From the NCBI GenBank assembly GCA_964372915.1, contig CAYJRN010000004.1, forward strand, positions 55,516 to 119,515: a stretch of DNA of 64,000 bases. Direction: 5' to 3'. The notes beneath the pieces were generated by a model. The model did not search any database. It worked only from the letters and a program-made list of their open reading frames with translations, and had not been told where the DNA came from. Position numbers and translations under genes: made by a program. Positions 1,644-64,000 of the stretch are shown here, piece after piece. Each line of letters starts with the position of its first letter. Position 1 is the first letter of the stretch. The stretch is from an uncultured Planctomycetales bacterium (GTDB taxonomy: Bacteria; Omnitrophota; Gorgyraeia; Zapsychrales; JAHFFX01).

Positions 1644-2882
1644 ATGTCCCAAAATTTCCTTAAGTGGTTTTATCCCCGTTTAAAGATCAAGCGGTGGTTT
1701 CTTACCTCTCTGCTGGGAATCCTGATCGTCTGGTTGGGGGCGATCTTCACGACCAAACCCTATTCGATTGTCAATGCCTTTGGGTTTGTCGTTATCTTTG
1801 TAGGCATTGCTTTTATTGTCTGGGGAATTTCCGAAACCATCATTTCGATCTTAAGTCTGTTTCTTCCCGGCGGCGTCCAGGAGCTCGTCAACATCCTCTA
1901 TCAGAGGCGTTACTTGGAGCGAGGGCCTAAAGTGGTCGCGATTGGAGGAGGCCACGGCCTTTCGAATCTTTTATTAGGATTAAAGGGATATACCTCGAAT
2001 TTGACGGCCATCGTCACGGTCGCCGACAGCGGCGGTTCTTCCGGACGCTTGAGAGAAGAGTTCAACATTGTCGCCCCGGGAGATATCCGTAACTGCCTGG
2101 TCGCTTTGGCCGATGCGCCGGCTTTGATGGGCAATCTCTTTCAATTTAGATTTTCCAAAGATTCCCAGCTGCAAGGCCACAATCTAGGGAATCTTTTCCT
2201 GACGGCGATGGTTCAATTGATGGACGGGGATTTTGAAAAAGCGGTGAAGGAATGCAGCAAGGTTTTGGCCATTCGCGGGAAGGTCGTTCCGGCGACGGTC
2301 AGCAACATCCATTTGGTGGCGGAATATATGGACGGTAGCCGCACCCAAGGAGAGGCCAGAATTCCTAAAAGCGGAGCCAAGATTAAACGTCTGACTTTAA
2401 CCGACAATGCCAACCCAACAGAAGATGCCCTGGAGGCCATCCGTCAGGCGGAAATTATTGTTTTGGGACCGGGAAGTCTATACACAAGCGTCATTCCCAA
2501 TCTTATCATCAAGGGAATGGCCGAGGCGATCGCCGGGTCTCGGGCCTATAAGCTTTATGTATGCAATGTGATGACCCAGCGCGGCGAGACGGAAGGGTAT
2601 TCGGCCGCCGATCACATCCAAGCCATTCTTGATCATGCCAATGGAGGGGTTATGAACGCCTGCATCGTCAATAACGCCGTTGTCCCAAAGAATGCGCTCA
2701 GCCGTTATGAAGCCGAAGACTCTTATCCGGTTAAACCCGACACGGAAAAGATTCACGACATGGGATATGAAGTGGTCGCCACGGATCTTTTGACCGTCAA
2801 CGATTACGTCCGTCACGATTCGAGAAAATTAACCAAAGCCTTGATCAATCTCATTGAAAAGCATCGTGTGATCAAACGTTAA
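1644..2882 (+). CDS. YvcK/CofD-like gluconeogenesis factor family protein (UPF0052) with an N-terminal 2-TM extension
   Basis: Core VVAIGGGHGLSNLLLGLK…TVADSGGSSGRLR typical of the YvcK/CofD family; the N-terminal ~90 aa are hydrophobic. Confidence 0.7.
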   Translation: MSQNFLKWFYPRLKIKRWFLTSLLGILIVWLGAIFTTKPYSIVNAFGFVVIFVGIAFIVWGISETIISILSLFLPGGVQELVNILYQRRYLERGPKVVAIGGGHGLSNLLLGLKGYTSNLTAIVTVADSGGSSGRLREEFNIVAPGDIRNCLVALADAPALMGNLFQFRFSKDSQLQGHNLGNLFLTAMVQLMDGDFEKAVKECSKVLAIRGKVVPATVSNIHLVAEYMDGSRTQGEARIPKSGAKIKRLTLTDNANPTEDALEAIRQAEIIVLGPGSLYTSVIPNLIIKGMAEAIAGSRAYKLYVCNVMTQRGETEGYSAADHIQAILDHANGGVMNACIVNNAVVPKNALSRYEAEDSYPVKPDTEKIHDMGYEVVATDLLTVNDYVRHDSRKLTKALINLIEKHRVIKR

Positions 2883-2892
2883 CAAGAGCACG

Positions 2893-3022
2893 GTGTAACA
2901 ACCCTGAGTCCCTCGACTTCGCTCGGGATGGTGAGCTTGTCGAACCACAAGTCCCGGACTTCCCCGGCCCGCCAGAGGCGACAGCCGGGACGGGCAGTCC
3001 GGGGTGTGTCGAAGGGTTGACC
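2893..3022. repeat. GC-rich intergenic repeat element A (related to copy B at 8337-8472)
   Basis: Shares GTGTAAC…TCGACT(T)CGCTC…CTGAGCTTGTCGAA…AGTCCGGGGTG(T/C)GTCGAAGGGTTGAC with 8367-8472; both copies encode the same spurious antisense peptide VNPSTHPGL. Confidence 0.65.
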
Positions 3023-3042
3023 GTAATCCATGGACCCCAAGG

Positions 3043-3306
3043 ATGCCCAAGATCGAAAAAGAGATGACAATTATGAATGGCCAGGGACTTCATGCCCGTC
3101 CGGCGGCGATGTTCGTTCAGATCGCGGTCAAATACGATTCCAAGATTACCGTTAAGAAAGGCGAGGAAGCGGTTAACGGCAAATCCATTATGGGGATTCT
3201 GATGCTGGGGGCACAGCATCTAAATAAGGTGACGCTGACTATCGAAGGCGATGATGCCGAGGCGGCCTTGAAGGAACTTGAGGAGTTTTTAGGAAAAGAT
3301 GGATGA
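3043..3306 (+). CDS. ptsH: Phosphocarrier protein HPr
   Basis: [11 protein letters not shown] active-site His motif with HPr length and fold signature; start ambiguous between ATG 3043 and ATG 3064 (3043 gives an N-terminal length closer to known HPr). Confidence 0.8.
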
Positions 3307-5071
3307 AGATGAAGTTGTCTTAAAAGGGATTCCGGCGGCACCGGGCATTGCGAGCGGTTCAGCGTTTATCCTCGACAAGCAGGACTTTATTGTCCCGGTC
3401 CGGGCGGTGATGAAACAGGAAGTCCCCATTGAAATTGCGCGCTTTGAGGAGGCCCTCATTAAGACCCGCGAGGAAATTCTGGCTATCCAGAAAAAAATCA
3501 GCGAGGCGATGGACGGCCAGCATGCGAAAATTTTTGATGCGCATCTGCTTGTGCTCGAGGATCGTATGCTCATTGAAGAGGTCATTAAGGATATCAAAAA
3601 GGAAAAACTTTCCGCCGAGTACATCTTCTCCAAGGTTTTGAAGAAATATACCAAGGCGATGTCTAAAATTGAGGATGAGTACCTGCGCGAGCGCACCGGC
3701 GATGTGAATGATATCGGGCGCCGAATCCTCAAGAATCTCATGGAGGAGAGCAAGCTCCAGGAGTTCGAAGATCTCACGGAAAAGATCATCATTGTGGCGC
3801 ATGACCTTTCTCCCTCGGACACAATCACCATGTACCATAAAAATATCATAGCGTTTGTGACTGACATCGGCGGCAGAACCTCTCACACGGCGATCATGGC
3901 GAAATCTTTGGGGGTGCCGGCGGTCGTGGGGTTAAAAGATTCCACGCTTAAGATCAACAATCAGGATCATATTATCGTGGACGGCCGTATGGGGCTGGTT
4001 ATTGTCAATCCCACCTCAACAACGGAGGGGATCTACCGCAACGAACAGAATCGCATTGTGGCCCTCAAGGACCGTTTCGCCGACATCAAAGATCTTCCGG
4101 CTCAAACCATCGACGGCAAAAAAGTTTCCATCCTGGCGAATATTGAATTGCCGGAGGAAATCCCGATGGTCAAAAAATACGGCGCCTCCGGGATCGGTCT
4201 TTACCGCACCGAATACATGTATATGAATCGGGTGGATCTTCCTCTGGAAGAAGAGCAGTTCAAAGCCTATCAGCAGGTGGCTAAGGCCATGGCCCCTTAC
4301 CCGGTCACGATCCGCAGCCTTGATCTGGGCGGCGATAAGTTTGTTTCCAGCTTGCAGATCCCTCGGGATATGTCTCCGTTCTTAGGCTGGCGGGCGATCA
4401 GGTTCTGCTTGGAACGCCCCGATATTTTTAAGGCCCAACTGCGAGCGATTCTTAGAGCGTCCATGTATGGGAAATTGCGCCTGATGTACCCGATGATCTC
4501 GGGGGCCGGGGAACTGCGTCAGGCAAACGCTATCCTGGAAGAAGTCAAAGTCAATTTGAGGGAAGAAAAAATCCCGTTTGATGAACAAATGCCGGTAGGT
4601 GTCATGATCGAAGTTCCTTCAGCGGCGTTAACCGCCGATCTTCTGGCGCGGGAAGCAAAGTTTTTTAGTATCGGCACCAATGACCTTATCCAATACACGC
4701 TGGCCGTCGAGCGCATCAATGAAAAGACCGCGGACCTTTATGAGCCGGGACATCCGGCAGTTTTGAAACTCATCAAGGCGTCCATCGACGCCGGTCACAA
4801 AGAGAATATCAGCGTGGGGCTTTGCGGAGAAATGTCGAGTGAGCCTTCGCTCGCTTTGCTTTTGTTGGGGTTGGGGTTGGATGAATTCAGCATGTCTCCG
4901 GGAAGTATTTTGCAGATCAAGAAACTCATCAGGAGTGTCCGTTTCACGGATGCCCAGAAGCTGGCCAACAAGGCCCTGACTATGTCGACGGGACAGGAAG
5001 TAGAGGAGATCGCCGTCGCCCGCCTGAAGGAGCTTGCCCCGAACATTTTTACGACCGAGAGGGAAGACTGA
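3299..5071 (+). CDS. ptsI: Phosphoenolpyruvate-protein phosphotransferase (PTS Enzyme I)
   Basis: 590 aa; [21 protein letters not shown] phospho-His region and the C-terminal PEP-utilising domain (…LDLGGDK…GTNDLIQY…). Confidence 0.9.
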
Positions 5072-58488: not shown

Positions 58489-59655
58489 ATGCAATCAGGA
58501 TTTAAACGCAGCCCGCTTATTCTTTGTCTTCTTGTCTTTTTCTCTTTTTCTGTTGGCGCAAGCCCCACGCAGTCCCCGCAACCCACGATTCGTGTGGCAG
58601 TCCTTGAAGGTGCCGTCCAGTTTGAGCTTTCCGTCCGCGGCAAATATGAAATCATTGATGTTCATTCGGGCGAGGTAGTTTTTAGCGGCGCTTATTTACA
58701 AAAGGCCCCGGTGTCTTTACAAGAGGACGCCATCCACATCGGCCACCTCAAATACACAGCCGATCGCTTGAGGGTCATTGCCAGGAAAGATGCCGCGATT
58801 TTTACCGACGGATGGCGTTTACGCGGAGACATCGAGATCCTAAGAACCAAGAACAAGAATTTCATAGTTATCAACCGCGTCGGCCTTGAGGATTACGTGA
58901 AAGGCGTTCTGTATAAAGAAATTTCCAACCGCTGGCCGCTCGCGGCCATCAAGGCGCAGGCCGTGGCCACAAGAACCTATGCCCTCTTTCGCATGGCAAA
59001 GAGTAAAGGCGCCGAGTACGATGTCACCAGCGACATCTATTCTCAGGTTTACGGCGGGCGTAATGCGGAAAAGTATCGCACGACGGTGGCCGCCAACCGC
59101 ACCGAAGGAGAGGTCCTCGCTTATAAAGGGGAAATCCTTCCGGCGTACTTTCATGCCACCTGCGGCGGATTTACCGAGGACGCCGACCAACTCTGGAAGC
59201 AGGACCTGCCTCCCTTAAAAGGAGTTTTTTGTCCCTGGTGCCGGACCTCGCCGCATTATTTCTGGCGAAAGAATTTTCGTTCCAAGGACATTCAGGCTCA
59301 GTTGAATCAACACGGCTATGAGCTGGGTCTCATTCAGAAAATTCAGCTGGTTGACCGCAACTTAAGCGGCCGCATCCGGAATCTTAAGATTATCGCCCGC
59401 GATGGGAAAGAAACCCTGATGGCGGGAAAAGATTTTAGGGAAATCATCGGCCCCAATCTCATCAGGAGCAACAATTATACGGTGGAAATGAAGGGATATT
59501 ACTTTGACCTCGTTGGAAAAGGCTGGGGGCATGGGGTAGGGATGTGCCAGTGGGGAGCGAGCGAAATGGCGCGCCTGGGCAAAAACTATAAGCAGATTTT
59601 GAGTTATTATTATCCGGGGGCGGATTTAGTGAACTTCTCGGAAGTGAAATTTTGA
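58489..59655 (+). CDS. SpoIID/LytB-domain protein (amidase enhancer-like)
   Basis: Signal peptide; …LEDYVKGVLYKEISNRWPLAAIKAQAVATRTYAL… SpoIID signature. Confidence 0.75.
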   Translation: MQSGFKRSPLILCLLVFFSFSVGASPTQSPQPTIRVAVLEGAVQFELSVRGKYEIIDVHSGEVVFSGAYLQKAPVSLQEDAIHIGHLKYTADRLRVIARKDAAIFTDGWRLRGDIEILRTKNKNFIVINRVGLEDYVKGVLYKEISNRWPLAAIKAQAVATRTYALFRMAKSKGAEYDVTSDIYSQVYGGRNAEKYRTTVAANRTEGEVLAYKGEILPAYFHATCGGFTEDADQLWKQDLPPLKGVFCPWCRTSPHYFWRKNFRSKDIQAQLNQHGYELGLIQKIQLVDRNLSGRIRNLKIIARDGKETLMAGKDFREIIGPNLIRSNNYTVEMKGYYFDLVGKGWGHGVGMCQWGASEMARLGKNYKQILSYYYPGADLVNFSEVKF

Positions 59656-59710
59656 TCTATTGAAGTCAACCCCAGCTCAATGAATGCAAGAGACCCAATA
59701 ATCCCATCCT

Positions 59711-60736
59711 ATGATCAGCCTCAAAGACTTCCACTACGACCTTCCCAAAGAATTGATCGCTCAAAGACCGCTTGAAGAGCGCGATCGCTGCCGGCTTATG
59801 GTTATTGACCGGCAAAAGTCCCGAATCACCCACGATGTTTTCGCGAATATCGGCCAATATCTTCCTCAAGGCAGCACGATTGTCCTTAATGACAGTAAAG
59901 TCATTCCCGCGCGGCTTTTGGGGAACCGCGCCACCGGCGGAACAGTGGAGGTGCTGCTTTTGAGGCGTTTGTCTGATGGATATTCGTATGAGTGTCTCAT
60001 CAAGCCTTTAGGGAGGCTGAAGCTTGAAGAAAAAATTATTTTTAATGGGAGCGCAGTATACGCAGAACTCAAGGATCATCAGAAAAAAATCGTTCGTTTT
60101 AACAAAAAGAATATTGGTTCCTTTTTGAATCGCATCGGACATATGCCGCTGCCGCCGTACATCAAGCGGACGGATGAGCCAAAGGACCGCGAATTTTATC
60201 AGACGGTGTACGCGAGGAAAGAGGGCTCGGTGGCGGCTCCGACCGCGGGGTTGCATTTCACGCCGGAGCTTTTAGAGCGTCTTCAAAAAGACGGTCACAG
60301 AATTGAGAAGGTGACGCTGCACGTCAATTACGCGACGTTTAAAATAGTCGAGGAAGAGGACATTACGAAACACCAAATGTATTTTGAGGATTACGCGGTC
60401 TCGGCGAAAACGATGAAAGCTCTGGGGCCCCGCCGACTGTCCCGCCTTGGCGGGACGGTGGGGCCCATCGTCGCCGTCGGCACCACCAGCTGCCGCGTCC
60501 TGGAGACGCTCGTACGCACGCAACAATCCCAAGGCAGCACCAACATCTTTATTTATCCGGGACTTAAATTTCAGAGAACGGACGTCCTCATCACCAATTT
60601 TCATCTGCCCAAAAGCACGCTGTTGATGCTTGTCTATGCCTTCGGCGGAACCGAGTTGATGAAGAGAGCGTATCAAGAGGCCATCGAACAAAGGTATCGG
60701 TTTTATAGTTACGGGGATGCGATGGTGATCCTTTAG
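59711..60736 (+). CDS. queA: S-adenosylmethionine:tRNA ribosyltransferase-isomerase
   Basis: MISLKDFHYDLPKELIAQRPLEERDRCRLMV… QueA N-terminus and length. Confidence 0.88.
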   Translation: MISLKDFHYDLPKELIAQRPLEERDRCRLMVIDRQKSRITHDVFANIGQYLPQGSTIVLNDSKVIPARLLGNRATGGTVEVLLLRRLSDGYSYECLIKPLGRLKLEEKIIFNGSAVYAELKDHQKKIVRFNKKNIGSFLNRIGHMPLPPYIKRTDEPKDREFYQTVYARKEGSVAAPTAGLHFTPELLERLQKDGHRIEKVTLHVNYATFKIVEEEDITKHQMYFEDYAVSAKTMKALGPRRLSRLGGTVGPIVAVGTTSCRVLETLVRTQQSQGSTNIFIYPGLKFQRTDVLITNFHLPKSTLLMLVYAFGGTELMKRAYQEAIEQRYRFYSYGDAMVIL

Positions 60737-60808
60737 TTGACTTTATCGCGGCAGGCCGGTATACTTAACGTAGATACAGAAGTATCTACAATGGAAGGGA
60801 GCAAAATT

Positions 60809-61093
60809 ATGAGTATAGCCATTAGCCTTTTGAAAGCCCCACACGTGGGTATCCGGGAGCTTAAGCAAGGGTTGTCTGATTTTCTTAAAAGAGATCAACC
60901 CCTCATCGTTACGGATCGGGGTGAGCCGACCAATGTCATTTTGCATTATGATGATTTTTTGGAACTTGTGGATATTATTGAAGAAATCAACGACCCGCGC
61001 ACAAGAAAACTTGTAGCCGAGGGACGCAGATTCATTAAAGAAGGTTCCTTAGGCATTCCAGTTTTTCCCGTCAAAGCCCTCAAACGCAAATGA
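60809..61093 (+). CDS. Phd/YefM-family type II antitoxin
   Basis: …VGIRELKQGLSDFLKRDQPLIVTDRGEPTNVILHYDDFLEL… matches the Phd/YefM pattern; strong RBS GGAAGGGAG; 4-nt overlap with the downstream toxin. Confidence 0.65.
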   Translation: MSIAISLLKAPHVGIRELKQGLSDFLKRDQPLIVTDRGEPTNVILHYDDFLELVDIIEEINDPRTRKLVAEGRRFIKEGSLGIPVFPVKALKRK

Positions 61094-61389
61094 AGTACGT
61101 CGCCAGGTTTCCTGCCGCCGCCATCGAGAGACACTTTCATAAAGCCTTGGAGGGTTTATCCCACGAAACCCATGAGAAAATCATGGAGGCCATTGCTTCT
61201 CTGCAAGATAATCCAAGACCTTTTGGCGCCAAACCGTTTACTCAGCTTAAACCTTCGGTGCATATTTATGATTATGTAGCACAATATCGGCTGCGCATCA
61301 GTGATTATCGTGTACTATATGATGTGGATGATCATAGAAAGATCGTCTGGATTCTTGCTTTAAGAAAGAGGAATGAAAAAACATATTAA
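61090..61389 (+). CDS. RelE/ParE-family type II toxin (mRNA interferase-like)
   Basis: 99 aa; …YRLRISDYRVLYDVDDHRKIVWILALRKR… RelE/StbE C-terminal signature. Confidence 0.7.
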   Translation: MKYVARFPAAAIERHFHKALEGLSHETHEKIMEAIASLQDNPRPFGAKPFTQLKPSVHIYDYVAQYRLRISDYRVLYDVDDHRKIVWILALRKRNEKTY

Positions 61390-61530
61390 ACCATCAAAAT
61401 TAACAAATAAGAGGGAAGATTTAAAAGAATTTGCCAAGCGCGCCCAAGAGCCAAGCATTTCTTTTGAAGAATTTCTAAAGAAACTTAAAGACGAAGGAAG
61501 AATATAGGGTAGGTGTATCAGGAGGTCGCA

Positions 61531-61794
61531 ATGCAGATTCATTGGAACAAAGACACCCAGGAGAAATTTAAAAAGATGATCGAGAAAATTCCGATTTTCC
61601 TGCGCGCTATCGCTGAGGACAAAGTCATGAAGAGAGCGGAAGGTCTCGCCACAAAAGACAATCGTTCGCAGGTGACCGAAAAAGACATGGTCGACGCCTT
61701 CTTTGCCGAAACCCCTTTCGGCTTTCATGGACCGATGAAGTGTGATATGGAAGAGATTGGGATTGATTATAAGAAGTATGGGTATGACAGTTGA
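61531..61794 (+). CDS. Small protein with PCP_red-like domain (hypothetical)
   Basis: W…EKFKKMIEKIPIFLRAIAEDKVMKRAE… resembles the ~45-aa PCP_red module found as standalone small proteins; RBS GGAGG 61521-61525. Confidence 0.4.
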   Translation: MQIHWNKDTQEKFKKMIEKIPIFLRAIAEDKVMKRAEGLATKDNRSQVTEKDMVDAFFAETPFGFHGPMKCDMEEIGIDYKKYGYDS

Positions 61795-61858
61795 GGATTA
61801 GAGGATTAAAAATCAAAGTTGACAAGCATACGCCAATGGCGCATACTGGTATCAGGAT

Positions 61859-62176
61859 ATGACCATCATTGAGACACCAATCTTTACTAAGAAAATCGTT
61901 GAGTATGTCTCGGATGAGGATTATCGAAGCCTGCAATTAACATTGATAGAACGTCCATCGGCCGGAAGCGTTATTCAAGGCACGGGCGGCTTGAGAAAAT
62001 ACCGTTGGGCCCATGAGGGGAAAGGCAAAAGCGGCGGGTTGCGAATCATCTATTTCTGGGACCCCAAGCATGAAGCAATTTACATGTTGCTGCCTTTCCG
62101 TAAGTCTGAAAAGAAAGATTTGACATCGGAGCAAAAGAAAATTCTCAAAAACGTGATAAAGGAGTATTTGACATGA
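61859..62176 (+). CDS. higB: HigB-like toxin (Gp49/COG4679-type RelE superfamily)
   Basis: …GGLRKYRWAHEGKGKSGGLRIIYFWDPKHEAIYMLLPFRKSEKKDLTSEQKKILKNVIKEY… matches the phage Gp49-like toxin family; toxin-first order with an overlapping HTH gene. Confidence 0.7.
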   Translation: MTIIETPIFTKKIVEYVSDEDYRSLQLTLIERPSAGSVIQGTGGLRKYRWAHEGKGKSGGLRIIYFWDPKHEAIYMLLPFRKSEKKDLTSEQKKILKNVIKEYLT

Positions 62177-62463
62177 AAAATCAGGAATTCAATGAGTTGG
62201 TTCAAAGCATACGCCAGGCCGGAGAGATCCAGAAAGGCAAACTTAAGGCCGGGCGGGTCTTCAAATTTCATCCTTTAGTGGTTAAACAGATCCGACAAAA
62301 ACTGCATCAATCGCAGAAGGATTTCGCGGAGATGATCGGGGTCAATCTTGCCACTCTGCAGAATTGGGAGCAGGGGCGTCGCCATCCGGAAGGGCCTGCC
62401 TTGACGCTGCTTAAAGTCGTCTCTAAAAATCCTCGCGCTGTTCTCAAAGCACTCCACGCGTAG
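62173..62463 (+). CDS. higA: HigA-like XRE-family HTH antitoxin
   Basis: …QKDFAEMIGVNLATLQNWEQGRRHPEGPALTLLKVV… HTH and C-terminal motif of COG5606-type HigA partners. Confidence 0.7.
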   Translation: MKNQEFNELVQSIRQAGEIQKGKLKAGRVFKFHPLVVKQIRQKLHQSQKDFAEMIGVNLATLQNWEQGRRHPEGPALTLLKVVSKNPRAVLKALHA

Positions 62464-62735
62464 ATTAAAATGATGGTCATTATTGAATGCATGGATGAAA
62501 TGATTCGGATTCGGGAAATAGTTTCCAATCTCAAGAGGAAAACTGTTTCATACCTGCTTTCCTTGATATGTTTTTAAAGATGAAGCAGGTACGTACCATC
62601 TTCCTTCTGGATAAAGTTTGCTGTGGAAAAGATGGTACGAAGTCAAAGGGGAAAGCGGGATTTACACTACAATTGTCGCCGGCCGGCAAGAATCTTGAAT
62701 TTCGATGGTGCGTGTCCACGGAATTCCAAAGAACG

Positions 62736-64000
62736 ATGAGCCAATTGTCGATGATGAATCAAAACTTCAAACTTTTCAAGAACGATCCATTCACTCGTGC
62801 CCGTCGTGGCGTCCTTACGACTCCTCACGGCACGATCCAAACGCCGTTTTTTATGCCGGTCGGTACCAACGGCACCGTGAAGACGCTGTCTTCCGAAGAC
62901 CTGCATGAAATGAATTCGCAGATCGTGCTGTCGAACACCTATCATTTGTTCATTCGTCCCGGAACGGATGTCATCAAAAACGCCGGAGGCTTGCACAAGT
63001 TTATGAATTGGGACAAGCCGATCTTGACCGACTCGGGTGGATATCAAGTATTCAGTCTTGCGCAATTACGCAAGCTCACCGATCAAGGCGTTGAGTTTCA
63101 ATCTCACTTCGACGGTAAAACGCATTTCTTAACCCCGGAAGATGTGATTTCTATTCAGCGTATTCTTGGTTCGGATATCATGATGCCGCTCGATGAATGC
63201 GCGCCTTTCCCATGCGAGCGCGACCATGCGCTTGAAGCTTTGGAACGAACGACGCGGTGGGCAAAACGGTCGAAGGAATTCTATTTTAGCGATTCCGACT
63301 GGCCTCTCGCCGGAACGCTTGCCCCGCCCCAGCGAGGCGGGGCTACGCTCGACGCTCGGACTCGCTCTCCCCGCCTTGCGGCGGGGAACCATGCCCGCTC
63401 GTCCTCACGACGTCCGGCTCAAGGCCAGTCGGAATCGCCGTCAGATCAATATCGTCAATTTTTGTTCGGCATCATCCAAGGCGCGGCGTTCAAGGATTTG
63501 CGCGAGCGCTCCGCCCGTGAAATCATCGACATAGGTTTTGATGGTTATGCCGTCGGCGGCGTGAGTGTGGGCGAGCCCGTGGACTTGATGTTCGAGACGC
63601 TCGAGTGGGTTGAACCGCTTTTACCGGAAGATCATCCGCGGTATTTTATGGGTATTGGTTATCCGGATCAGATCGTGCGCGCGGTGGGGATGGGGATGGA
63701 CATGTTCGACACCGTGATCCCGACGCGCTTTGGCCGTAACGGCAGCGCGTTCACGGACCGAGGCCGCTTGGCCATGCGCAATGCCGAGTACACCAGCGAC
63801 ACGCGGCCTTTGGATGAAAACTGCGCGTGTATTGTCTGCCGAAAATATTCCAGAAGTTATATCCGCCACCTTTTAAACGCCGGAGAAATCTTAGGCCTTA
63901 AACTGCTTGCGTATCACAACGTTACCTTCTATATTCATCTTATGGAACGGATGCGCGGAACAATCGAAGCGGGGACGTTCAAACAGTTTCACGATAATTT
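62736..64000 (+). CDS. tgt: Queuine tRNA-ribosyltransferase (3' end outside window), carrying a ~50-aa in-frame low-complexity insertion
   Basis: …ARRGVLTTPHGTIQTPFFMPVGTNGTVK…PILTDSGGYQVFSL…GFDGYAVGG…CxCxxC…H zinc site; open to the window edge (absent from the ORF track because no in-window stop); start 62736 or 62751. Confidence 0.88.
   Translation, partial: MSQLSMMNQNFKLFKNDPFTRARRGVLTTPHGTIQTPFFMPVGTNGTVKTLSSEDLHEMNSQIVLSNTYHLFIRPGTDVIKNAGGLHKFMNWDKPILTDSGGYQVFSLAQLRKLTDQGVEFQSHFDGKTHFLTPEDVISIQRILGSDIMMPLDECAPFPCERDHALEALERTTRWAKRSKEFYFSDSDWPLAGTLAPPQRGGATLDARTRSPRLAAGNHARSSSRRPAQGQSESPSDQYRQFLFGIIQGAAFKDLRERSAREIIDIGFDGYAVGGVSVGEPVDLMFETLEWVEPLLPEDHPRYFMGIGYPDQIVRAVGMGMDMFDTVIPTRFGRNGSAFTDRGRLAMRNAEYTSDTRPLDENCACIVCRKYSRSYIRHLLNAGEILGLKLLAYHNVTFYIHLMERMRGTIEAGTFKQFHDN
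63290..63450. repeat. GC-rich palindromic element inserted in-frame within tgt
   Basis: ~70% GC versus ~50% flanks; hairpins gccccgcc-ccagcga-ggcggggc and ccccgcc-ttgc-ggcgggg; contains cgactcgctc, also present in repeats A/B; lengthens the WAKRS…GIIQG spacing by ~50 residues. Confidence 0.55.

Follow-up and report, generated by a model that had tools for sequence, protein, structure and literature searches.

In the genome of an uncultured member of the Omnitrophota, the tRNA modification genes queA and tgt are separated by 2.0 kb of DNA (queA ends at 60736, tgt starts at 62736), which carries two type II toxin–antitoxin (TA) operons and, between them, a gene for a small protein of the PCP_red/DUF2621 family. 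The gap lies near the end of a stretch of 64,000 nucleotides (contig CAYJRN010000004.1), which was analysed as a whole and is referred to here as the window; unless stated otherwise, coordinates are those of the window. Very likely, the gap is a composite of three independent units, which accumulated at an insertion-tolerant junction in one lineage of the Omnitrophota. The first unit would be a yefM/phd-relE/yoeB-type operon (60737–61389) with its own promoter and an operator-like palindrome. The second would be a native PCP_red/DUF2621 gene (61531–61794), which was relocated and stands outside both TA systems, and the third a higB2-higA2 (NadS)-type operon (61819–62463) with its own promoter and the same RelE-fold mechanism. 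In this view, the TA operons, each self-contained and unrelated to the other, would have arrived separately and would now flank a native gene that was itself relocated.

The gene string scpA-ruvB-spoIID-queA-tgt-trmD is conserved in the phylum. The distance between queA and tgt in seven Omnitrophota relatives is 0 bp (L013), 10 bp (L063), 16 bp (L075), 25 bp (L009), 30 bp (L011), 93 bp (L012), and 244 bp (L010). Adjacency of the two genes is also found in Clostridia, Syntrophus, and others, so that the contiguous arrangement is likely ancestral. This synteny comparison agrees with a first-pass annotation of the window, made from the sequence alone, which had regarded queA and tgt as neighbours in many bacteria.

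Several Omnitrophota carry other genes at this junction. The nearest relative (L073; 70% QueA identity) possesses genes for a 154-aa protein with no known function and an S-adenosylmethionine (SAM) methyltransferase, L074 those for a peptidyl-prolyl isomerase (PPIase) and a 620-aa protein, and L015 yet another gene. In L016, L017, and L018, the junction is occupied by approximately 7.3 kb of two-component signalling genes (9113–16123 in L016), whose products share 77–97% identity across the three species. This cargo includes a 1071-aa PAS histidine kinase, response regulators, a GGDEF protein, a second kinase, and a PilZ protein. Since the genes found in L073, L074, L015, and L016–L018 are unrelated, the junction repeatedly accepts genes. 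'Insertion-permissive site in a housekeeping gene string' is a fair description of it, in support of the earlier reading as an insertion hotspot. The gap would tolerate insertions because the genes are all co-oriented and nothing essential is interrupted. In 64 queA loci examined in other species (up to 8 kb on each side), homologues of the five inserted genes were absent throughout, and no relative with the gene order of the window was encountered.

The stretch between queA and tgt has a GC content of 0.437, the lowest of any 2-kb segment in the 64 kb (mean 0.495, sd 0.018). The GC content at third codon positions (GC3), with z-scores calculated against 53 genes of the window, is 0.43 for the Phd-like antitoxin gene (z -4.2) and 0.41 for the RelE-like toxin gene (z -4.8). 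The PCP_red/DUF2621 gene has a host-like GC3 of 0.568 (z -0.65), and the values for the HigB- and HigA-like genes are 0.53 and 0.57, respectively. This difference between the first TA pair and the remaining genes points to separate origins of the parts of the block. No integrase or transposase gene was found between spoIID and trmD, no tRNA gene is located nearby, and no direct repeats were detected at the block boundaries; other repeats are present at other positions. The block thus displays none of the marks of a mobile element that were looked for, i.e. integrase or transposase, flanking repeats, and a tRNA or attC target. The term 'island', as used in the first-pass annotation, overstates its unity, given the sharply uneven GC3 and the lack of a mobility gene and of flanking repeats.

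The left flank of the gap is queA (59711–60736, plus strand), which encodes tRNA preQ1(34) S-adenosylmethionine ribosyltransferase-isomerase (PF02547, 413 bits; NF001140, 423 bits) and terminates with a TAG stop codon at 60734–60736. The right flank is tgt (62736–64000, plus strand), coding for tRNA-guanine transglycosylase (PF01702, 515 bits; TIGR00430, 499 bits). The latter gene is cut by the window end after its 5' 421 codons; in the identical contig L001, the complete open reading frame (ORF) comprises 434 aa and is followed by trmD. The separation of about 2 kb and the six ORFs reported at first were all found in place. All listed ORFs are on the plus strand, and minus-strand ORFs between queA and tgt gave no Pfam matches. 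Contigs from three independent sequencing runs were 100% identical to the window (ERR4904392, 5805 bases; ERR3478687, 2816 bases; ERR3478686, 3195 bases), so that the queA-tgt arrangement does not stem from an assembly error. The host belongs to the Omnitrophota: the best QueA matches in the data containing one genome per species were from this phylum (50–61% identity).

The first TA module consists of genes for a Phd/YefM-like antitoxin of 94 aa (60809–61093, plus strand) and a RelE/YoeB-like toxin of 99 aa from the RelE/ParE superfamily (61090–61389, plus strand). The antitoxin gene comes first, and the two genes share a 4-nt ATGA overlap. The antitoxin scored 24.4 bits with TIGR01552 (cut-off 20.8) and matched the antitoxin family phrog_2268 (E 2e-4); a sequence search of the PDB gave no match for this protein. 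The toxin passed the cut-off of PF05016 (ParE_toxin; 34.2 bits, cut-off 23) and matched the phage family phrog_1213 of RelE-like toxins (E 7e-12). It has 176 homologues. Those with a name are annotated as RelE/ParE toxins or as mRNA interferases, and where an organism is given, the genome is mostly one of the Omnitrophota. Comparison of a profile made from 44 homologues with solved structures retrieved YoeB (E 8e-7), P. horikoshii aRelE (E 1e-5), and E. coli RelE (E 0.01), and no ParE gyrase-poison structure at E ≤ 0.01. The conserved residues R67, R74, Y77, R92, and R94 as well as the C-terminal Y99 are retained. The label RelE/YoeB-like was chosen because the profile matches only mRNA interferases and the conserved Arg and Tyr residues are kept. 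Most likely, the toxin belongs to the mRNA-interferase branch and not to the gyrase-poison ParE branch. It would then most likely be a ribosome-dependent mRNA endonuclease, with the antitoxin inactivating the toxin and repressing the operon.

A homologous pair is present in another Omnitrophota genome (L078), where the antitoxin is 58% and the toxin 61% identical to those of the window; the gene order is the same and the genes overlap. In the window, a sigma-70-like promoter site, TTGACT-17-TATACT (60737–60765, plus strand; 10 of 12 consensus matches), starts one base past the queA stop codon, and the L078 cassette shows TTGACG-16-TATACT at the equivalent position. A perfect palindrome, GTAGATAC-AGAA-GTATCTAC, could be read from the sequence just 3' of the -10 hexamer (60770–60789, plus strand), and the half-site GTAGATAC occurs again upstream of the homologous pair in L078. 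The palindrome is operator-like and may function as the operator of this module. Taken together, the profile and structure-database searches and the conservation of the pair support the earlier identification of 60809–61389 as a complete Phd/YefM-RelE type II TA module.

In the second module, the toxin gene comes first. It encodes a HigB-2-like toxin of 105 aa from the RelE fold family PF06296 (61859–62176, plus strand) and is followed by the gene for a HigA-2/NadS-like helix-turn-helix (HTH) antitoxin of 96 aa (62173–62463, plus strand). This is the reversed HigBA order, again with a 4-nt ATGA overlap. The toxin passed the cut-off of PF06296 'RelE' (31.2 bits, cut-off 27) but not that of Gp49 (18.3 bits versus 23.9). 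It matched HigB-2 of V. cholerae (5ja9) with an E-value of 5.6e-23, 46 of 95 aligned residues being identical (48%; residues 3–97), and phrog_5869 with 1e-30. Its identity to annotated RelE/ParE toxins is at most about 51%, and homologues are encoded on 882 plasmids. The antitoxin scored 65.6 bits with the NadS model NF041265 (cut-off 60), 34.8 bits with PF01381 (HTH_3), and 31.5 bits with PF15731 (MqsA_antitoxin), and matched HigA-2 of V. cholerae (5j9i; E 4e-10). A plasmid of A. baumannii carries a homologue of the toxin (49% identical), followed by an overlapping nadS whose product is 41% identical to the HigA-like antitoxin. The identification of 61859–62463 as a complete HigB-HigA module was confirmed by the PF06296, NadS, and HTH_3 matches and by those to the V. 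cholerae structures. By homology, the toxin would cleave mRNA in a ribosome-dependent manner.

A sigma-70-like promoter site, TTGACA-17-CATACT (61819–61847, plus strand; 10 of 12 consensus matches), is located upstream of higB. Its spacer contains two copies of GCATAC around GCCA-A-TGGC. A 12-nt perfect direct repeat, AAGCATACGCCA, occurs in the same spacer (61824–61835) and in the 5' region of higA (62205–62216); two or more 12-nt direct repeats were obtained in 4% of shuffles. In addition, higBA is bracketed by a 12-nt perfect inverted repeat, ATGACCATCATT / AATGATGGTCAT (61859–61870 and 62469–62480), which extends from the higB start codon to 6 nt beyond the higA stop codon. It was considered as a boundary signal and rejected, since 22% of shuffles yield such a repeat and it is compatible with chance.

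The gene between the two modules (61531–61794, plus strand) encodes a PCP_red/DUF2621-family protein of 87 aa and is preceded by AGGAGG 5 nt ahead of its ATG. The protein passed the cut-off of DUF2621 (PF11084; 33.5 bits, cut-off 27.7) and failed that of PCP_red (23.6 bits versus 32.5). Of the family labels given at first, the TA assignments stood, while the Gp49, PCP_red, and Phd matches fell short of the respective Pfam cut-offs (the Phd-like antitoxin passed that of TIGR01552). Homologues of the 87-aa protein number 602; among the 120 listed, identity to it is 62–76%, and all of these with an organism name are from Omnitrophota. The homologues share 23 invariant positions, including the motif TPFGFxGPxKxDM. 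The AlphaFold2 model (pLDDT 91.7) is a five-helix bundle, and the nearest folds are those of Nostoc asr4154 (2l09), the PCP_red domain of BchB (2kru), and, more generically, the lid domains of AAA+ proteins.

Five other genomic contexts of PCP_red genes were inspected: a glycosyltransferase gene and a MiaB-like gene; a dap operon; an RNase II gene; GFA and MamF genes; and PMT_2 and PIG-L genes. None of the five included a TA neighbour, and neither queA nor tgt was nearby. The 87-aa protein gave no PADLOC or PHROG matches, and no literature on the function of DUF2621 or PF08369 was found. Our best guess is a small protein-binding module from the phylum's core gene set, without a fixed location on the chromosome. 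The suggestion that it might be an additional TA or defence component is not borne out by its conservation throughout the phylum, its host-like GC3, the five contexts without TA genes, and the absence of PADLOC or PHROG matches. As a by-product of this analysis, a small helical DUF2621/PCP_red-like protein of 87 aa emerged as conserved across the phylum.

The 44-aa ORF between the first toxin gene and the PCP_red/DUF2621 gene (orf44; 61373–61507, plus strand) is probably no gene. Its GC content is 0.31 and its GC3 0.27 (z -8.5). It had no match in Pfam (even at E ≤ 10), NCBIfam, PADLOC, or PHROG, and a search of 1.84 billion representative proteins retrieved just orf44 itself and low-complexity proteins. 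A counterpart is absent after the homologous cassette in L078. Most likely, orf44 does not code for a protein and is AT-rich DNA with which the first cassette ends on its 3' side. It had been listed as a possible gene and a potential TA or defence component, an idea that we do not retain for an orphan with 31% GC, which is missing from the L078 cassette. We also considered, and rejected, a conserved partnership of orf44 with PCP_red: in L003, L005, L076, and L077, the small ORFs directly upstream of PCP_red represent three mutually unrelated types and are unrelated to orf44.

Curated cut-offs were passed by all four TA proteins, three of them in Pfam and the fourth in NCBIfam. Both toxins would be RelE-fold ribosome-dependent mRNases, kept in check by their cognate antitoxins. 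Promoters and terminators were called by consensus scans of 59600–63000, and promoters of Omnitrophota are uncharacterised; the two best sigma-70-like sites of this region (10 of 12 matches each) are located directly before the two TA operons. PADLOC gave no match for the Phd, RelE, orf44, PCP_red, and HigB proteins and only generic HTH matches for HigA. Viral contigs contained no close relative of HigB, and the RelE relatives detected there were only 28–45% identical over partial alignments. A phage as the vehicle of the TA pairs was therefore rejected. Both TA families are well known, and both pairs are ordinary representatives of them. A preprint on a groundwater metagenome reports RelE/StbE and HigA/HigB pairs among the gene clusters that chromosomes have in common with mobile elements, the participating chromosomes being mainly those of Omnitrophota and of two further phyla with small genomes (bioRxiv 10.64898/2026.05.20.726742).

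Several points weigh against the composite origin as outlined above. The score of the Phd-like antitoxin with Pfam PF02604 (24.8 bits) is below the cut-off of 29.8. The promoter site before higBA would leave a leader of just about 5 nt and may not mark the true start. Toxin activity, neutralisation, and autoregulation are ascribed to both pairs from their families. The view was confined to the 64 kb of the window, out of a contig of 138.8 kb, and the genome may contain further copies of the PCP_red gene. The closest relative shares just 70% QueA identity, with none above this value among 5.8 billion proteins, which gives little hold for ordering or dating the insertions. It may also be that the PCP_red gene and higBA moved en bloc from another member of the Omnitrophota with a similar GC content.

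A transfer of the whole block as one mobile or defence island, in which PCP_red and orf44 are TA partners (a third component, chaperone, or sensor), would explain why the genes are co-directional and tightly packed without an intervening terminator, why the GC content of the window is at its lowest here when the stretch is taken as one, and why PCP_red, having no fixed neighbourhood across genomes, does move. We regard such a single acquisition as quite unlikely. GC3 is uneven, with 0.27–0.43 in the left part versus 0.53–0.57 in the rest; an integrase, a transposase, a tRNA gene, and flanking direct repeats are all missing; and no close relatives of either toxin were found on viral contigs. 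Partnership with the TA genes is contradicted by the other PCP_red contexts (TA neighbours in 0 of 5), by the L078 cassette, which lacks both PCP_red and orf44, and by the lack of PADLOC or PHROG matches for these two and of homologues for orf44. Highly improbable is the opposite view that the arrangement is an old, vertically inherited core string under purifying selection, which involved no insertion. The flanks scpA-ruvB-spoIID-queA and tgt-trmD are indeed conserved throughout the phylum, as is PCP_red itself. However, no relative has this cargo: queA and tgt are adjacent in seven of them and enclose different genes in others, 0 of 64 queA loci have a homologue of the five inserted genes, and the GC3 of the Phd and RelE genes looks foreign.

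Another explanation considers the regulatory effect of the arrangement. The tgt gene, and with it PCP_red, might be transcribed by read-through from queA and from the two autoregulated TA promoters, which would tie queuosine modification to the state of the TA systems. In relatives, tgt stands within 0–30 bp behind queA and so is probably co-transcribed with it. Apart from a weak site within relE, the scan gave no plus-strand terminator-like site from queA to tgt, and the 272-bp non-coding spacer ahead of tgt (62464–62735, plus strand) has neither a terminator-like site nor a plus-strand promoter-like site with at least 9 of 12 matches. On the other hand, one promoter-like site (9 of 12 matches) is located inside the 3' end of higA (62401–62430), polar arrangements of this kind are common and usually neutral, and the argument is built purely on consensus scans in a phylum with uncharacterised promoters. 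Regulation of this kind appears unlikely. Still somewhat less probable is a rewired tRNA-modification operon, in which tgt and PCP_red would be driven in part by stress-responsive TA promoters and PCP_red would be retained because the TA pairs penalise its loss. If true, such an operon would couple queuosine modification of tRNA to ribosome-dependent mRNase activity. We maintain the accumulation of three independent units as the preferred explanation.

The 272-bp spacer displays no similarity to the junctions of the relatives, and its RNA fold is only mildly more stable than those of shuffles (z -2.2), which is indecisive. No Rfam family was detected in the block, either in a search of the whole window at gathering thresholds or in one of 60600–63600 at E ≤ 1.

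The tgt gene contains a peculiar insert at 63289–63438. It has a length of 150 bp, i.e. exactly 50 codons in frame, a GC content of 72%, and a strongly palindromic structure. Its ends form inverted arms of 26 nt (88% complementary), and further inside are two perfect GC hairpins of 8 bp (63321–63343 and 63368–63387). Folded as single-stranded DNA, it yields -54 kcal/mol (z -6.8). The insert cuts the Pfam match of the transglycosylase in two and leaves the reading frame and the catalytic motifs intact; it sits in a loop and is absent from the Tgt proteins of eight Omnitrophota relatives. Independent assemblies contain the same insert. In type, the insert recalls the Rickettsia palindromic elements, which are also in frame, or a miniature inverted-repeat transposable element (MITE), but the window, the fetched loci, and two scans of JGI metagenomes for the pattern of terminal repeats yielded no further copy. 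Should the genome contain others, the insert would represent an Omnitrophota counterpart of the Rickettsia elements. The 244-bp queA-tgt gap of L010 (2953–3195 in that locus) also has GC-rich hairpins, e.g. TCCGCCGCAGATTGCGGCGGA, which are similar in style to an inner hairpin of the tgt insert (TCCCCGCCTTGCGGCGGGGA). Together, they could be a first sign of a family of such palindromes among the Omnitrophota.

With regard to the window as a whole, essentially all long ORFs that are not overlapped by a longer one are on the plus strand, which makes an unusually long co-directional run. Three tRNA genes at 441–1024 are the only ones in the window.

The locus contributes little new biology. It is an example, from the poorly studied Omnitrophota, of stacked type II TA pairs within a core string (in the gap of scpA-ruvB-spoIID-queA / tgt-trmD), and the pairs broaden two families, HigB-2/HigA-2 and a RelE/YoeB-like one that is centred on Omnitrophota. 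A similar habit is seen in L078 (Omnitrophica genome GCA_016235185.1), where the Phd-RelE pair is followed by an MNT/HepT pair (NTP_transf_2 and HepT-like) at 2711–4244 of that locus. These stacked pairs lie between a deaminase-domain gene and dnaX, and the promoter layout and the GTAGATAC motif are kept. In both genomes, TA pairs are stacked between the genes of a core string. The site is different, however, the second module of L078 is the unrelated MNT/HepT, and a PCP_red gene is lacking there. With respect to the latter gene, the fold of the 87-aa protein agrees with those of stand-alone PCP_red proteins (Nostoc asr4154, 2l09) and of the C-terminal domain of BchB, a protochlorophyllide reductase component (2kru).

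Module 1 resembles the YefM-YoeB and Phd-Doc types, in which an antitoxin of this kind is combined with a RelE/YoeB interferase (E. coli RelE; YoeB, 7v6w; aRelE, 1wmi), in the antitoxin-first order, the 4-nt overlap, the probable Phd/YefM-type N-terminal domain of the antitoxin, and the conserved Arg residues and C-terminal Tyr of the toxin. As in autoregulated TA operons, a promoter is followed by a palindrome. Module 1 differs from these systems in that its toxin is far from every solved structure (best E 8e-7, by profile), its antitoxin remains under the Pfam gathering score, and its lineage is so far represented mainly by Omnitrophota genomes from metagenomes. Module 2 shares the toxin-first order and overlapping genes with HigB-2/HigA-2 of the V. 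cholerae superintegron (5ja9, 5j9i, 5jaa), and its antitoxin has a C-terminal HTH like HigA-2 and the NadS model. A pair of this type is also kept as a unit on the A. baumannii plasmid, in line with the HigB/NadS-type pairs of small Acinetobacter plasmids. Unlike these superintegron and plasmid pairs, to which it is 41–49% identical, module 2 has neither an integron attC-like site nor a plasmid context and resides on the chromosome, within a housekeeping gene string of an Omnitrophota bacterium.

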